The notes under the pieces were generated by a model. That model saw only the letters and a program-made list of their open reading frames with translations. It did not search any database and was not told the origin of the DNA. Shown one piece after another: positions 1 through 32,093 of a stretch of 32,093 bases of DNA (positions are counted from its first letter, which is position 1; each line of letters opens with the position of its first letter). Source of the stretch: a virus. The stretch lies in the IMG/VR virus record IMGVR_UViG_3300045988_175223; one strand, written 5' to 3'. The translations under genes were made by a program, and so were the position numbers.

Positions 1-456
1 GGCGGCAATCTCGACCTCAGAGGCACGGCGATAACCTCTCTGCCCGATAATCTTACCGTAGGCGGCTGGCTCGACCTCGAAGGCACGGCGATAACCTCTC
101 TGCCCGATAATCTTACCGTAGGCGGCCGGCTCGACCTCGAAGGCACGGCGATAACCTCTCTGCCCGATAACCTTACCGTAGGCGGCTCGCTCTACCTCGA
201 AGGCACGGCGATAACCTCTCTGCCCGATAATCTTACCGTAGGCGGCTCGCTCTCCCTCAGAGGCACGGCGATAACCTCTCTGCCCGATAACCTTACCGTA
301 GGCGGCAATCTCGACCTCAGAGGCACGGCGATAACCTCTCTGCCCGATAATCTTACCGTAGGCGGCTGGCTCGACCTCGAAGGCACGGCGATAACCTCTC
401 TGCCCGATAACCTTACCGTAGGCGGCTCGCTCTACCTCGAAGGCACGGCGATAACC
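1..456 (+). repeat. Tandem 60-bp coding repeat, 7.6 copies; units start at 1, 61, 121, 181, 241, 301, 361 and 421 (partial). Two more copies at 31984-32093 are the same array wrapped around the record ends.
   Basis: Direct reading: units identical at 54-57 of 60 nt. Differences are confined to codons 3, 5 and 7 of each 20-codon unit plus one synonymous aat/aac. Confidence 0.95.
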
Positions 457-924
457 GCAAAGGAAAGACGGAAAGTGTGCATCCTCAGACCTAATGATTG
501 TGTTGAAGGCAAATATATTTTTGCAGACGGCATCCTTACGCATATTTGCGGTAAGCCTCATAAACGCGGAAAATACACCTATTACAACGGTAAAATCAAA
601 GGTCGAAATGTGATTTTTGACGGCGAAAATTATGCGCACTGCAAAGATTTCAAAAGCGGAGTTATCGATTTGCAATACAAGGCAGCAAAAGATCGCGGCG
701 CAGAACAGTACAAAAAACTCAATCTCGACAGCGTAGTGACTTACGATGAGGCCGTCATTATGTATCGCGTTATCACCGGCGCATGTTCGGCCGGTACGGA
801 GCAGTTTTTAAGCAATCTGCGCGAACGAAAAGAAAAATACACCATTGCAGAGGCAATACGGCTTACTGACGGCCAGTACGGCAGCGCAGCATTCAAACGC
901 TTCTTTACGGCGAAGGAGGAGTAG
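1..924 (+). CDS. C-terminal part of a wrap-around gene (31915 -> 924): LRR-like 20-residue repeat protein (GGxLxLxGTAITSLPDNLTV x ~8) plus a ~165-aa C-terminal domain of unknown function. It is partial at the window start only because of the permutation.
   Basis: Frame 1 is open from nt 1 through TAG at 922-924; the track ORF 475..924 is its tail. The repeat matches the LRR core L4xL6xxN/T9xI11xxL14P15. Confidence 0.7.
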   Translation, partial: GGNLDLRGTAITSLPDNLTVGGWLDLEGTAITSLPDNLTVGGRLDLEGTAITSLPDNLTVGGSLYLEGTAITSLPDNLTVGGSLSLRGTAITSLPDNLTVGGNLDLRGTAITSLPDNLTVGGWLDLEGTAITSLPDNLTVGGSLYLEGTAITAKERRKVCILRPNDCVEGKYIFADGILTHICGKPHKRGKYTYYNGKIKGRNVIFDGENYAHCKDFKSGVIDLQYKAAKDRGAEQYKKLNLDSVVTYDEAVIMYRVITGACSAGTEQFLSNLRERKEKYTIAEAIRLTDGQYGSAAFKRFFTAKEE

Positions 925-926
925 TT

Positions 927-1142
927 ATGACACTATACGAAACAGTCGAACGCAATATCCGCGGCAGAATGGCGCAGCTGAAGCTGACCGGCAAGGACAT
1001 CTTTCGCCGGTGCGGATACAGCACTGCGCAAGGGTTTAATGTCCGGCTGCGCAACCCGAAAAGCATTACAATTAACGATTTAAGCTGCATCGCAAAAGTT
1101 CTAAATACAACGCCGGAAGCATTGCCGGAAAGGAGTAAATGA
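927..1142 (+). CDS. XRE-family helix-turn-helix transcriptional regulator (Cro/CI-like), 71 aa
   Basis: Small ORF with an HTH signature (GKDIFRRCGYSTAQGFNVRL...INDLSCIAKVLNTTPEAL); GGAGGA RBS; coupled to the upstream gene stop. Confidence 0.6.
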   Translation: MTLYETVERNIRGRMAQLKLTGKDIFRRCGYSTAQGFNVRLRNPKSITINDLSCIAKVLNTTPEALPERSK

Positions 1143-10047: not shown

Positions 10048-10228
10048 CGACTATCAAGCGACTATCCCGAACGACTATTTCGGGGCTGCCAGCGACTATT
10101 GAGCGACTATTAAGCGACTATCGGGCAAAAATCAAGCGACTGTTAGCGACTATTAAGCGACTATCAGCCGCTTTTTTCTCCGAGCGACTATCGCAAGCGA
10201 CTATCGCAAGCGACTACCGAGCGACTAT
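10040..10228. repeat. Array of about 14 direct copies of (A)GCGACTAT with 2-20 nt spacers, starting inside the last codons of the terS-like gene. Candidate pac site or TerS-binding site, or iterons.
   Basis: Read directly: ...cgactaacgactatcaagcgactatcccgaacgactatt...gagcgactatcgcaagcgactatcgcaagcgactaccgagcgactatcgc. Confidence 0.85.
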
Positions 10229-10549
10229 CGCGGACGGTTCGGGCAAGGCAGGCAGGGCGGGACGGCAGCACCCCCCGAACCCGAACGGGGGCGCAGCCGG
10301 GCAAGGGTGCCGCCTCAACCCGACGCCGCCTGGAATCGAGGCGGAAAACACACCAAAACCGCCGCGCACAGAGAACGCAAGCCCACAAAATCAACATAAA
10401 GGGTAAAATAAAGCCTGCCGCAGCCTTTTTATGCCGTGAGCGGGTAAATGTTCGGGTGCAAAATAAAAACGCCGCAGAACGGCTAAAAAAGCCTTTTGCG
10501 GCGGCGGGCAAAAATAAAAGGTGCAGGCCGTCACCGGCTGCACCGTGCA

Positions 10550-11015: not shown

Positions 11016-11240
11016 TTAAAATACCCTGAAAAGATTGGTGCAGCGGCCTATTATCACGTATAATTGCCCGGTTTCGTCGTCTCGCAATAGTCCGCCATTT
11101 ATGCCGTATATGCCGGCGCTATACCCTATTTTAGCCAGCCTGCGCAGCGTGTCCATATATTCGCCGGGCTTGTTGGTGTAGTCCTCGGCCACACCGAGCC
11201 GGACAAGCTGCCGCAATTGTGCTTGCGTGTACTTTTTCAT
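11016..11240 (-). CDS. Hypothetical protein, 74 aa
   Basis: AAGGAGG RBS; ATGA overlap with the upstream gene; protein-like. Confidence 0.5.
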   Translation of the reverse strand: MKKYTQAQLRQLVRLGVAEDYTNKPGEYMDTLRRLAKIGYSAGIYGINGGLLRDDETGQLYVIIGRCTNLFRVF

Positions 11241-11830
11241 GCTTCCGCCTCCTTTGTGGCCGCGACAAACGCCCGGAAAACCCGCTCCCCGGCCTGATAC
11301 AGTGCCCGCGCTTGCACATCAAGCCACAGTTCTCGGATGTTCGGTCTGCGCTCACCGTTGCGGGTGCGTTTGAGCTCGGACGGGCAGCAAAGGCGCTCCG
11401 CTATATCGCCGTCATAGATAAGCGCCGATCCGCCCCAGCTGTATTCCTCCCAGTTTGCCGCACCGTTTAGCATCTTTTCGCGTAGTGCGCGGGGCTTCAG
11501 CAGCTCGGCAGCGTCCGCGGAAAGGTATCCACCCTCCGCAAGTTCTTTCAGGCCGTCCAGCAGTTCCAGGGCGTAAGCTGTAACGCCTTTATCCCATGCG
11601 CTGCGGTCTTTGCGGGCTTCGATAAGCTCGGCGGCCTTCTGCAATGCCGCGCAGGTGGTGCTTTCCGGTTCGGGATCAGCAACAACCGGCACGAAACGGT
11701 TTCCATATACCACTTCATCGCCGGGCTTTATTTCCGTATTGCTTACGGTTTTGCAGCCGCGCGGGCTGTTGTCCTTTTTGCTCCAAGTGCTGCAAGTCAT
11801 GATTTCGCTCATTGTGATAGATTCTTTCAT
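11237..11830 (-). CDS. Hypothetical protein, 198 aa, no histidines; start at MKESITMSEIM
   Basis: AAGGAGA RBS 5 nt upstream of ATG (reverse complement of 11828-11830); the track start at 11878 lacks an RBS. Confidence 0.5.
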   Translation of the reverse strand: MKESITMSEIMTCSTWSKKDNSPRGCKTVSNTEIKPGDEVVYGNRFVPVVADPEPESTTCAALQKAAELIEARKDRSAWDKGVTAYALELLDGLKELAEGGYLSADAAELLKPRALREKMLNGAANWEEYSWGGSALIYDGDIAERLCCPSELKRTRNGERRPNIRELWLDVQARALYQAGERVFRAFVAATKEAEA

Positions 11831-11920
11831 TTTCTCAAATTCTCCTTGATTTTCTCCGGCTGTTAGGCTATAATACAAGGGCTGCCGGGCGTCCTTGTGC
11901 TTGGTTGGTGTTTTGGTGAT

Positions 11921-12214: not shown

Positions 12215-12528
12215 CTTTAATCCGTGCTTGTTTACTTTTTTTCATATTGTCCTCACTTTCTCCCCGGTGCTGCCGGGGCGCTTTATTATTTACGATTACA
12301 TTATAATTGATTTATCGTAATTGTCAAGGGGAAAATCAAGATTTATCGTAATTTTTTTATATTTTTATGTTTCGGGGGCAATTGTGCGGGATTATAGGGC
12401 GCTGCCCAGCCACCCGGTGACGGCCTGCGCCGCGCCCCCTGTGGGGGATAGCCGGAAGCCCTGCGGGGCGGAGTAATCCCCCCACCCACCGAAAAAAATA
12501 AAAAAAACAAAAAAATACGAAAAACAAC

Positions 12529-12557
12529 TTGACAGATTAACCGTAATTTGATACAAT
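12529..12557 (+). promoter_or_regulatory. Near-consensus promoter TTGACA-17-TACAAT driving the serine recombinase gene
   Basis: ttgaca (12529-12534), 17-nt spacer, tacaat (12552-12557); AAAGGAGGAG RBS at 12571-12580. Confidence 0.55.
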
Positions 12558-12588
12558 CAGTGCGTGAAGTAAAGGAGGAGAGCAAACA

Positions 12589-13350
12589 ATGAAAAATGTA
12601 ATTGCTTATATCCGTGTCAGCACCGATGGTCAGGTGGGAGAAGATAAATACGGCTTGGAAGTGCAGAAGCGGCAAATTGAAGAGTATTGCCGTAAAAATG
12701 AGATGAACATCATAGAATGGTACGCAGACGAAGGAGAAAGCGGCGCGAAACAGCGCCCGGGATTCGATAAAATCGTCTATGGCGATATCAAGAATCCTCC
12801 TGTCGAAGCGGTCGTTGTAGCGAAAACAGATCGTGTCGCAAGGGACATTGAAGTGTATTTCTTCTACAAAATGCTTTTGCGCAAAAAGGAAATAGAACTC
12901 ATCTCCATAACGGAAGATTTCGGTCAATTCGGAGTTTTCTCAAATGTATTGGAAGCCTTTACAATACTGGTTGCGAAGATGGAACGAGAGAATATTAACA
13001 AAAGAACGAGCGCGGGCAGAGCCGTAAAATCGGCTAAAGGTCAGTACAGCGGAGGTCGCACCCCGTTTGGTTATAAAGCGGAAAATCATCAGCTGGTGAT
13101 TGTTCCGAATGAGGCTGATATTGTAAAAACGATATTCAGAATGAAGGACGGCGAGGGCATGACCTATCAGGCAATTGTAGAGTTCCTGAACAGTCAGGGC
13201 AAAAAAAACCGCAGCGGAAATGCATTTTCGATAAGTACCGTTCAGACGATTTACGAAAACAAGAAAACCTATGAGGGTTGGTACAAGTACAGTGGGTCTG
13301 AATGGGTCAAAGGCGCACACGAAGCTATCTTGACGGAGTGTCCCGCATGA
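12589..13350 (+). CDS. Serine recombinase (resolvase catalytic domain plus part of the large-serine-recombinase 'recombinase' domain), 253 aa. It appears truncated before the zinc-ribbon and coiled-coil domains.
   Basis: AYIRVSTDGQ catalytic-serine motif at residues 6-15; GGRTPFGYK recombinase-domain motif; ends at ...HEAILTECPA where large serine recombinases continue. Confidence 0.7.
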   Translation: MKNVIAYIRVSTDGQVGEDKYGLEVQKRQIEEYCRKNEMNIIEWYADEGESGAKQRPGFDKIVYGDIKNPPVEAVVVAKTDRVARDIEVYFFYKMLLRKKEIELISITEDFGQFGVFSNVLEAFTILVAKMERENINKRTSAGRAVKSAKGQYSGGRTPFGYKAENHQLVIVPNEADIVKTIFRMKDGEGMTYQAIVEFLNSQGKKNRSGNAFSISTVQTIYENKKTYEGWYKYSGSEWVKGAHEAILTECPA

Positions 13351-13718
13351 CCCTCCGCTCCTACACGCCGTCAGACGCAGCGCAGCTCGGAGCCTTTGAA
13401 TACTGGACAAACGCGCTGAGCCACTGCGGCACAGCCCTGACAGCACCGAACACGATATTCCTGCTGTGCCTGAACGGAACCGAACCGATCGGGATTATCT
13501 GCGGCGAGAACACGGCACTGTACGGAAATATCCTGTACGCAGCCGAAGTGCTCAAGCCGTATCGGAACCGTGGTGTAATGCGGAAAATGTTCAGCGCATA
13601 CCTGAACCGAGCTGCCGGGAGCGTAACCGTGTTTCACAACGCTGAACTTGACGGCATGTACCGTTCTCTCGGCTTTGAAGTGGGCGAAAACACACATGTC
13701 AGCCTGTATGTGAAGTGA
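13347..13718 (+). CDS. GNAT-family N-acetyltransferase, 123 aa
   Basis: Acetyl-CoA motif A RNRGVMRKMF (R-x-x-G-x-G/A); start overlaps the recombinase stop (ATGA). Confidence 0.6.
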   Translation: MTLRSYTPSDAAQLGAFEYWTNALSHCGTALTAPNTIFLLCLNGTEPIGIICGENTALYGNILYAAEVLKPYRNRGVMRKMFSAYLNRAAGSVTVFHNAELDGMYRSLGFEVGENTHVSLYVK

Positions 13719-31017: not shown

Positions 31018-31265
31018 AAAAGATAGGATTTCAGAAACAGGCTGAACCCGAACAGGGCAACGATGCCGTGAATCATCCTGCGCACTACACTGACGGCGGC
31101 ATTGAAACGATTGATTTTATTGAGGCAAAACGGCTTCCGTATCATCTGGGCAATGCCGTGAAGTACATTTCGCGGGCAGGAAAGAAAGACCCGGACAAGA
31201 CAATTCAAGACCTCGAAAAAGCGATCTGGTACATTGACCGGTACATAGATTTACTAAAAAAATAA
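31014..31265 (+). CDS. DUF3310 family phage protein, 83 aa
   Basis: VNHPAHYTDGGIETIDFIEAK...GNAVKYISRAGKK...DLEKAIWYIDRYI matches the DUF3310 consensus; GGAGG RBS; GTG start overlapping the upstream stop. Confidence 0.65.
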   Translation: MKKIGFQKQAEPEQGNDAVNHPAHYTDGGIETIDFIEAKRLPYHLGNAVKYISRAGKKDPDKTIQDLEKAIWYIDRYIDLLKK

Positions 31266-31283
31266 TCCTTCCGAAAGAGAATA

Positions 31284-31313
31284 AGAGACCGCCGCCCGGT
31301 GGTCTCTTTTTTA
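31284..31313 (+). terminator. Rho-independent terminator AGAGACC...GGTCTCT then T7
   Basis: Read directly; follows the DUF3310 stop. Confidence 0.6.
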
Positions 31314-31459
31314 CCCCGATTTCGTGTTGCATTTCGTGTTGCATTTACCCGAAAAATTCTGATAATTTGTCACTCCATATTCCGTGACCCGTTCAAGAAA
31401 TACTGTCATTCGCCCTCATATGCGTAGGAAAAAATTTTTATAAAAATTCTATTTACCTC

Positions 31460-31488
31460 TTGACATATTCTATCAATAGAAATATAAT
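31460..31488 (+). promoter_or_regulatory. Perfect consensus promoter TTGACA-17-TATAAT upstream of a roughly 140-nt structured leader and the 31639 / LRR-like / XRE gene set
   Basis: ttgaca (31460-31465), 17-nt spacer, tataat (31483-31488). Confidence 0.55.
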
Positions 31489-31638
31489 TACTACCGTAGG
31501 GAAAAACATTGTTGTTCTGACGGCAAGAACGGAAAAACTGTGGCCGTGATATCAAATTGCTGACATCAATGATTATACCACGGCCAAAAGGAAAAAGCAA
31601 GAACAATATTGTTGCCTACGGAAAGCGAGGTGAAAACA

Positions 31639-31902
31639 GTGATTGACAAGATGGTGAAGCGCCTGACGCCGGAGGAACGCCGTGCAAAGGCAAGTTACAT
31701 CCGCGAAACTAAAGCGATGGGGCTTAAGTTTACGGCAATTTTGGATGTGCTTGCCGATGAGGATGTGCATACAAATGCAAGCGATCTTTCGGGCTATCTG
31801 GGCGGCTATAAAACCGGGCCGAAGCAAGATTATGTGCTTACCCGCGCGGAGCAGATATGCAGAGACTATCGCAAAAACTTCATGAGCAAATTTTCACTGT
31901 AA
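31639..31902 (+). CDS. Hypothetical protein, 87 aa from GTG 31639 (or 83 aa from ATG 31651)
   Basis: AGCGAGGTG RBS 7 nt before GTG; first gene behind the consensus promoter and ahead of the LRR-like gene. Confidence 0.45.
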   Translation: MIDKMVKRLTPEERRAKASYIRETKAMGLKFTAILDVLADEDVHTNASDLSGYLGGYKTGPKQDYVLTRAEQICRDYRKNFMSKFSL

Positions 31903-31914
31903 AAGGAGGCAGCA

Positions 31915-32093
31915 ATGAGCAATATGGACAAACTAAACCCCAACCCCACCCTCAAAGAACTTAACAAAATGATGAAAGCGAACGGCGGCAATCTCGACCT
32001 CAGAGGCACGGCGATAACCTCTCTGCCCGATAATCTTACCGTAGGCGGCTGGCTCGACCTCGAAGGCACGGCGATAACCTCTCTGCCCGATAA
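31915..32093 (+). CDS. N-terminal part of the same LRR-like repeat gene (MSNMDKLNPNPTLKELNKMMKAN then repeats); continues at nt 1.
   Basis: ATG at 31915, 7 nt after AAAGGAGG. Reading frame is continuous with frame 1 at nt 1 when the 110-nt terminal overlap is collapsed. Confidence 0.7.
   Translation, partial: MSNMDKLNPNPTLKELNKMMKANGGNLDLRGTAITSLPDNLTVGGWLDLEGTAITSLPD

Follow-up and report, generated by a model that had tools for sequence, protein, structure and literature searches.

Hypervariable leucine-rich repeats joined to a constant C-terminal domain in a phage early-operon protein

A repeat array with variation at few codons

How can the units of a repeat array stay nearly identical in nucleotide sequence, differ at a few codons only, and what might a phage gain from the protein that they encode? 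We addressed this question in the IMG/VR virus record IMGVR_UViG_3300045988_175223, a stretch of 32,093 nucleotides (nt) referred to below as the window, in which a gene for a predicted leucine-rich repeat (LRR) protein runs across the record ends. The gene starts at the ATG at 31915 on the plus strand, preceded by the Shine-Dalgarno sequence AAGGAGG at 31903-31909, and stops with TAG at 922-924. A preliminary description of this DNA had proposed a single gene from 31915 to 924, and this was borne out: the frame is continuous over the record ends, but only when the 110-nt terminal redundancy of the contig (31984-32093 = 1-110) is collapsed. That redundancy is an assembly overlap and represents no additional sequence. 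The joined gene has 993 nt and encodes 330 amino acids (aa), and its parts are the following.

31915..31983, plus strand: 5' end of the LRR gene, translated as the 23-aa N-terminal segment MSNMDKLNPNPTLKELNKMMKAN
31984..32093, plus strand: terminal redundancy of the contig; exact-match and repeat search found identical copies of it at 1-110 (units 1-2) and at 301-410 (units 6-7)
1..456, plus strand: LRR array of seven complete 60-nt units (1-420) plus twelve codons of an eighth (421-456)
457..924, plus strand: conserved C-terminal domain (CTD), AKERRK...TAKEE, about 155 aa, and stop codon

Tandem Repeats Finder detected the array at 10-456 with a period of 60 nt, 7.4 copies and a score of 754. 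The unit reads GGxLxLxGTAITSLPDNLTV, with core positions L4, L6, T9, I11, L14 and P15, and its variable codons 3, 5 and 7 occupy unit offsets 7-9, 13-15 and 19-21. The codon triplets reported for the eight units were found to be correct: (aat,gac,aga), (tgg,gac,gaa), (cgg,gac,gaa), (tcg,tac,gaa), (tcg,tcc,aga), (aat,gac,aga), (tgg,gac,gaa) and (tcg,tac,gaa). Outside these codons the sole difference is AAT/AAC at codon 17. Variable nucleotides therefore number 7/9 in codons 3, 5 and 7 compared to 1/51 elsewhere (Fisher p=7.2e-7), and the mean pairwise nucleotide identity of the units is 92.7% overall and 98.7% outside the variable, or hot, codons.

To place these codons on a structure, we used an AlphaFold2 (AF2) model of residues 24-330 built with 32 homologues (pLDDT 90.6, pTM 0.81). 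In the repeat part each unit has two short strands (unit positions 4-5 and 19-20) with pLDDT >90, and there are no helices. The best Foldseek match in the PDB was chain 0 of 8z5u, the protein FlrP (E=8e-7, 35% identity, TM score 0.69 normalised to the length of FlrP), followed by the LRR domains of IpaH1.4, IpaH7.8, IpaH9.8, SspH1 and YopM with probability 1.00. A phmmer search of the PDB sequences returned 8z5u_0 (FlrP, E=1.9e-26) and SlrP (E=4.9e-9). The score of the window protein against Pfam LRR_14 was 10.5 bits, far below the cut-off of 40, and some homologues have precomputed Pfam LRR_1, LRR_4 or LRR_14 matches, which were faint in both of those looked up. Together, the AF2, Foldseek and phmmer results show that the repeats, as modelled, belong to the bacterial 20-residue LRR class and form a curved solenoid, as had been predicted from the letters alone. 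A beta-alpha solenoid had been expected, and here the model agrees in part: the solenoid is present, but alpha-helices are not. Their absence does not refute an LRR fold, because lack of alpha-helices is normal in the bacterial 20-residue class (YopM/IpaH). Residues 3, 5 and 7 would point away from the core, since L4 and L6 are invariant core residues on the same strand. In LRRs the strand face opposite the core leucines is the concave face, and it is this established geometry, not an inspection of model coordinates, that places residues 3, 5 and 7 on the concave face.

Variation in the wider family is confined to the same strand. Among 833 units from 120 homologues, within-protein entropy was highest at positions 3, 5, 7, 8 and 10, and positions 1, 2, 4, 6, 9, 11, 14, 15, 18 and 20 were nearly fixed. 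The earlier claim that variation falls on the predicted binding face thus holds for the xLxLx strand positions, with 3, 5 and 7 variable in the window and 8 and 10 in addition over the homologues. Most hot-site residues are S, D, G, N, Y, R, Q, P or W. The 1,044 units contain 463 different 3-5-7-8 combinations, and the hot sites look like a protein-binding surface and not like a small code.

Arrays of near-identical units recur in various hosts and assemblies (loci L011, L021, L043, L046, L056, L060, L063, L073, L075 and L085), and in these ten arrays most differences between units fall at codons 3, 5, 7, 8 and 10. Identity over the 45 nt outside the hot codons was 0.92-0.99 within arrays compared to 0.63-0.86 between unrelated arrays. 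The arrays are nearly the same in peptide, yet each has its own synonymous codons; the codon for position 13 is TCT in all units of the window and GCG or TCG, never TCT, in the units of its sister phages. The higher identity within than between arrays, despite a nearly constant peptide, therefore indicates concerted evolution. In eleven homogenised arrays the hot codons had 54 nonsynonymous and 7 synonymous variants, compared to 15 nonsynonymous and 28 synonymous variants at the other fifteen codons (Fisher p=1.3e-8). As far as sequence comparison can tell, the pattern is one of diversifying selection combined with concerted evolution by intra-array recombination, in agreement with the diversifying selection beside homogenised flanks that the preliminary description had suggested.

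Codons 5 and 7 of the window units occur in all four combinations of D or non-D with R (AGA) or E (GAA). Reshuffling of units is likelier than recurrent mutation as the source of these combinations, because AGA and GAA differ by two nucleotides. Nucleotide identity of the sister phages to the window is 89-97% over the CTD and 94-96% over the 2.3 kb that follow, yet their unit numbers and hot-site residues differ. Their arrays have roughly 2 to 8 units, which indirectly supports the copy-number variation that had been raised as a possibility. Phase variation had been raised as well; no feature suggesting it turned up, although no specific search for it was made.

The types of unit are firmer than their number. 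The figure of about eight units corresponds to the shortest path that passes each assembled junction once, but the 110-nt tail has two exact placements, at 1-110 and at 301-410, and the contig ends 1 base short of the AAT/AAC site able to distinguish the two joins. In the assembly graph two paths lead into the two-unit block NDR-WDE, one from the N-terminal segment and one from the SSR unit, and two lead out of it, either with T to RDE or with C to SYE and then the CTD. Arrays of three units (plus a variant), of eight units or of 8+5n units all fit the assembly, and there is about an even chance that eight units in this order is wrong. Related assemblies break at the same place. Three sister scaffolds (L004-L006) have 100-N gaps within the array and two sister contigs (L096 and L097) terminate within it, and with the window counted 6/8 assemblies of the sister group are broken or N-gapped there. 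Of 78 family open reading frames (ORFs) in species-representative genomes, 29 are cut off upstream by a contig end and 5 have N gaps inside them. Because so many loci are broken in these ways, short-read catalogues under-report and mis-describe this CTD family, and the repeat number of 'circular' phage contigs closed via such an array is not fixed by assembly. The unit types are trustworthy, since each 15-nt variable block fits within one read or k-mer, whereas unit number and order are unreliable from short reads.

The constant C-terminal domain and the early operon

The repeats are one half of the protein. A search with the full protein returned 1,495 proteins at E<=1e-3. The 120 best of these matches are mostly 260-460 aa long with 1-10 units, mostly 4-10, and the few source-named records among them are Clostridia or Ruminococcus metagenome-assembled genomes (MAGs) and one Caudoviricetes record. 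Across 14 diverse sequences the CTD (155 aa) has 26 invariant columns; invariant CTD residues, numbered on the 8-unit protein, include D199, H236, C237, D246, K250, R255, Y260, Y278, R279, T282, C285, K300, Y303, E307 and Y316. The model of the CTD is confident (pLDDT 86) and consists of a beta part with six strands and then a helical part. A profile of the CTD matched 1,305 representatives of clusters formed at 50% identity, of which 820 reached E<=1e-10, and in nearly all of the best 150 profile matches listed the domain was located C-terminally. Ahead of it stand the LRR unit of the window type, other 20-aa units (GGSLYLSGLTSIPEGFNPTV, GGWLDCSNNQLTELTINQPI and GGSVYVREGATFQADQLTTI), 18-aa units, 8-aa Cys-rich units, 9-aa units or a BspA-type LRR, and in Tetrasphaera phage TJE1 the CTD stands alone as orf51. 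Beyond Clostridia it was found in Bacteroidales, Dysgonomonas, Tannerella, Desulfovibrio and Alphaproteobacteria.

Several members of the family have arrangements of their own. On contig00008 of Ruminococcus sp. LCP21S3_E8 two family genes (L033 and L045) lie about 8 kb apart within 54-70 kb and have 18 LRR units each; one array is partly homogenised in a three-unit super-repeat and the other is fully diverged. In the proteins P0145 and P0148 a Cro/CI-type helix-turn-helix (HTH) domain is fused ahead of the repeats. Dulem virus 31 (L008, 3392-4390), a 35.8-kb record classified as a microvirus, encodes the CTD after about twelve 9-aa units, AQLASSGDY, that vary at the D, Y and S positions.

The CTD had been described as having no recognisable motif, and library and PDB-profile searches agree. 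Pfam, PHROGs and NCBIfam gave nothing significant for the full 330-aa protein, with the CTD entirely without matches, and the CTD profile had chance-level matches only (E>=0.26) among the PDB sequences. A Foldseek search of BFVD returned only unannotated or misnamed relatives ('E3 ubiquitin-protein ligase', 'Lamprin'); at its C-terminus the protein has no NEL domain with its catalytic Cys. INPHARED yielded only TJE1 orf51, listed twice under different accessions, and Dulem virus 31, and the annotation is hypothetical in each case. A search of IMG/VR with the CTD protein found one distant relative, and two exact patterns specific to the window, one searched in JGI metagenomes and one in IMG/VR, gave zero matches. 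A 35-mer conserved among the sisters identified two more contigs, L096 and L097, and none in IMG/VR. No description of the phage family was found in the literature, which is weak evidence as the search was thin on subscription journals.

The window is a phage genome, encoding a RecE-like exonuclease, SSB, an ERCC4 nuclease and a primase-helicase, as well as terminase, an SPP1-type portal and endolysin. The features that surround the LRR gene are the following.

31460..31488, plus strand: early-operon promoter TTGACA-17-TATAAT, 12/12 sigma-70 consensus, serving ORF97 and the downstream genes including the LRR gene
31609..31902, plus strand: ORF97, first gene of the operon (from the ORF list), with its stop 12 nt ahead of the LRR start
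927..1142, plus strand: gene for a 71-aa HTH protein (PHROG 4583 'transcriptional repressor', E=1.3e-5), conserved in the sisters

The preliminary description had placed the LRR gene behind a perfect sigma-70 promoter and ahead of its own terminator, in the manner of a moron. The promoter is indeed perfect, but it precedes ORF97 and not the LRR gene, and no second promoter-like site was found between it and the LRR gene. No terminator-like site follows the LRR gene, and the ATG of the HTH gene (927) comes 3 nt past its stop. On these three grounds we reject the moron reading; the gene is an internal, tightly packed one, second in the early operon. ORF97 itself had zero PHROG or Pfam matches, and homologous 86-aa ORFs occupy its position in the sister phages.

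Elsewhere the family occupies a similar place. In the sister phages a tyrosine integrase and HTH repressors adjoin the early operon, which is oriented divergently from them. In two unrelated prophages the family genes are found downstream of the integrase-side module, at a distance of one to two small genes, and upstream of replication or recombination genes; the module includes an HTH repressor in one prophage and, in the other, a serine integrase. TJE1 orf51 opens a rightward operon, directly before ERF and an exonuclease. In L094, a 420-kb contig, a family gene lies amid small same-strand ORFs upstream of PcfK and PcfJ homologues, which suggests that the family is also present on conjugative elements. 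When the early-operon proteins of the window were compared with the ORFs of 88 loci, the immediate neighbours were common to the sister phages only.

Other observations concern the history of the locus. Between a DUF3310-like gene and the early operon, the sisters L002-L006 have a tyrosine integrase and one or two HTH repressors; at that place (31265-31609) the window has a 343-nt gap only. ORF97 and the N-terminal segment are about 62% identical to those of the sisters and the CTD and downstream genes 89-97%, and this step places a mosaic junction at or near the repeat array. In two sisters, L005 (1577-1867) and L006 (1826-2116), an additional 96-aa ORF separates the ORF97 homologue from the LRR gene, and this, too, is evidence that genes come and go at the locus. 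Between the promoter and ORF97, the 120-nt leader (31489-31608) folds into one long imperfect hairpin, with a minimum free energy of -40.1 kcal/mol (z=-3.4 versus shuffles). Rfam assigned no family to the leader, and the hairpin could be a regulatory leader of the early operon.

Farther away, at 12589-13718, the window encodes a 253-aa serine recombinase ORF with Resolvase and Recombinase domains and then an overlapping 138-aa ORF; the pair may be a split large serine integrase. Beside it, between a small-terminase-like gene and the large terminase gene, are two unannotated minus-strand ORFs (11237-11878 and 12343-12927), and together with the recombinase they look like an inserted module. After the small-terminase-like gene, at 10091-10231, two adjacent intergenic tandem arrays (AGCGACTATTA x6.8 and AGCGACTATCGCA x3.9) could be protein-binding iterons or a packaging site.

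Proposed function and rival explanations

We propose that the LRR gene product is a cytoplasmic early phage 'binder-effector', a statement that, taken whole, we hold to be rather probable. Its structural and evolutionary half is very likely correct, and a counter-defence or host-takeover function is offered more tentatively, as a suggestion that could well prove wrong. The product is probably cytoplasmic, as its N-terminus has no evident hydrophobic segment: judged by eye in the window protein and in those homologues that were read, the N-terminal segment has no stretch resembling a signal peptide. The gene is placed beside the lysis-lysogeny switch, upstream of recombination and replication genes. 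In the proposed mechanism, the variable concave face would bind polymorphic host proteins or proteins of rival mobile elements, with defence components as the most plausible targets. The constant CTD would provide a common action, either modification of the target or docking to a conserved host machine. Point mutations at the exposed codons would create new specificities, and unequal crossover or gene conversion between near-identical units would then reshuffle, duplicate and delete units.

Several points weigh against this proposal. No recognisable catalytic fold was found in the CTD. PADLOC gave no match for residues 24-330 (window 1-921), although PADLOC-DB covers defence-system proteins and not anti-defence proteins. 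As no neighbouring gene is conserved beyond the sisters, guilt by association is uninformative. The family includes old, diverged arrays that are not homogenised (L026, L030, L045 and L052); homogenisation is thus frequent but not universal, and rapid turnover likewise does not hold throughout the family. The nonsynonymous excess was counted on short-read assemblies with unreliable unit order and number, and because it consists of variant counts and not of a tree-based dN/dS, relaxed constraint at exposed sites contributes to it.

The strongest alternative, which we consider unlikely but worth serious attention, is that the protein is a prophage-borne abortive-infection sensor-effector, in which the LRR face senses rival phages and the CTD is a toxin, as in an NLR without its NTPase. 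The architecture of a sensor with a constant domain fits, the gene adjoins the integrase and repressor module in sister prophages and in unrelated ones, and near-identical repeats with hypervariable contacts are a hallmark of fungal NLR sensors (PMC12222747, PMC2873952). However, the gene is transcribed with the lytic early operon, away from the repressor. It is also kept in the window phage, which does not have the tyrosine integrase and repressor module of its sisters and whose serine-recombinase ORF is elsewhere. In addition, residues 24-330 matched no PADLOC model, and the protein, only 330 aa long, has no NTPase (NACHT/NB-ARC) or known toxin domain.

The repeats could instead form a modular reader in which each unit recognises one element of a periodic ligand (nucleic acid, glycan or extended peptide), using the residues at positions 3, 5 and 7 as a code in the manner of transcription activator-like effectors (TALEs), PPR or PUF proteins. 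In its near-identical units with repeat-variable residues the array is built, at the DNA level, like TALE repeats; aromatic and hydrogen-bonding residues (W, Y, N, D, S, R and E) dominate the hot sites, and some relatives (the P0145 and P0148 proteins) have the N-terminal HTH. We find this improbable. The abundance of residue combinations and the modest mutual information between positions do not indicate a small discrete code, and other fusions of the CTD involve unrelated repeat scaffolds of 8, 9 and 18 residues whose geometry differs. We know of no LRR that reads nucleic acid one unit per base. A TALE-like code was dropped as the favoured reading after the residue words had been counted (463/1,044).

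Could the pattern be an assembly artefact, with repeats collapsed or made chimeric from mixed strains and the circle falsely closed? Both ends of the contig lie in the array, the 110-nt overlap can be placed twice exactly, and the arrays of sisters and of the wider family meet gaps or contig ends as often as described above. Illumina assemblies of comparable fungal repeats are also unreliable (PMC12222747). An artefact is nevertheless very improbable. The 15-nt variable blocks are flanked by identical sequence and fit a single k-mer or read, and the same pattern is present in at least 10 independent assemblies from different hosts, one of which (L060) is a genome record titled as a strain and not as a MAG. 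Furthermore, mis-assembly would be unable to yield a nonsynonymous excess at exact strand positions.

A virion or surface role, as a receptor-binding adhesin or as a secreted lysogenic-conversion factor acting on the animal host, is more improbable again. It draws on the fact that many bacterial LRR proteins are secreted or surface-bound and that FlrP has a Sec signal (bioRxiv 10.64898/2025.12.04.692373). The phage protein has no evident signal peptide or anchor, and its gene is not an independently transcribed moron but has early, recombination and replication genes as its surroundings; the structural module starts, with the terminase gene, some 13 kb away.

Hardly credible, finally, is a dedicated mutator, either a diversity-generating retroelement or templated cassettes, that writes the variable codons: whole-codon differences of 2-3 nt (AAT/TCG, AGA/GAA) do lie beside identical flanks, but many steps in other arrays are of a single nucleotide (TCG/TGG, GAT/TAT/AAT), and the retroelement was dropped as a candidate because the window has no second copy of the unit as a template repeat and no reverse transcriptase among those ORFs that were scanned. 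A pattern of this kind is also seen in the repeats of TALEs and of fungal NLRs, for which no dedicated mutator is known.

Known systems and implications

The closest described phenomenon to the phage array is found in the high-internal-conservation (HIC) repeats of fungal NLRs, which include the WD40 repeats of HET-D, of HET-E and of HET-R in Podospora, along with ANK and TPR repeats. These repeats keep high identity through concerted evolution and have few hypervariable sites, on the interaction surface and under diversifying selection; their number is unstable, recombination generates new unit variants and Illumina assemblies fail on them (PMC2873952, PMC12222747). Those of the features that can be read from sequence are all reproduced in the phage array, and for unstable repeat number the evidence is indirect, from the differing unit numbers of sister phages. 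The phage protein differs in that its repeats are LRRs and not WD40, ANK or TPR, in the absence of a NACHT or NB-ARC NTPase, in its carrier, which is a phage early gene, and in its partner, which is the uncharacterised CTD.

TALE repeats offer a second comparison. The units of Xanthomonas TAL effectors are near-identical, synonymous sites included, and vary in the codons that set specificity (the repeat-variable diresidue). However, TALE units are helical, 34 aa long and follow a small DNA code, whereas the phage units are 20-aa turns of a beta-solenoid with hundreds of residue combinations. In fold, the phage protein shares the 20-residue LRR class with YopM and with the LRR and NEL E3 ligase proteins IpaH, SspH and SlrP. 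In the latter an N-terminal LRR selects the substrate and a constant C-terminal domain acts; the phage CTD is not NEL.

The closest solved structure, 8z5u_0, is that of FlrP, a Sec-exported periplasmic LRR protein of the Vibrio polar flagellar motor with a beta-solenoid core (bioRxiv 10.64898/2025.12.04.692373). Its unit, GG-x-L-x-L...LP..L.V, is as in the phage protein. FlrP differs from the phage protein in its periplasmic structural role, in having no C-terminal domain and in repeats that have diverged from one another. Two eukaryotic systems resemble the phage protein in design. Poxvirus ankyrin-repeat/PRANC (F-box-like) proteins join a variable repeat binder to a small conserved C-terminal docking domain, and lamprey variable lymphocyte receptors (VLRs) diversify the concave face of an LRR as a repertoire. 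The phage CTD has no sequence or fold relation to PRANC, and VLR diversity is somatic and templated by cassettes, in contrast to the germline diversity of the phage array, which lies between genomes.

What is new is that hypervariable repeats of the HIC type are now found in a phage early gene, joined to an uncharacterised constant domain. The CTD comprises about 1,300 clusters at 50% identity in several bacterial phyla, without a Pfam, PHROG, NCBIfam or PDB counterpart, and the partners to which it is fused point to a general 'constant module'. As a scaffold diversified by nature, the 20-residue LRR may be of interest to binder engineers.

A broader reading is possible, though we regard it as doubtful: that these proteins are a large class of early proteins of phages and mobile elements, undescribed in the literature searched, in which a CTD of about 150 aa and of new fold is combined with interchangeable hypervariable solenoid binders (several LRR types, non-LRR units of 18 and 20 aa, Cys-rich units of 8 aa and units of 9 aa), the arrays evolve like fungal NLR sensors, and the CTD neutralises bound defence proteins or hands them to a conserved host machine. 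If this were true, the class would be the prokaryotic-virus counterpart of poxvirus ANK-PRANC adaptors or of IpaH effectors, and viruses would own a rapidly re-programmable repertoire of intracellular binders. If the function that we propose for the LRR protein holds, conserved repeats with hypervariable contacts would extend from eukaryotic immune receptors and TAL effectors to the phage side, and phages would keep evolvable, antibody-like binders in their early operons.

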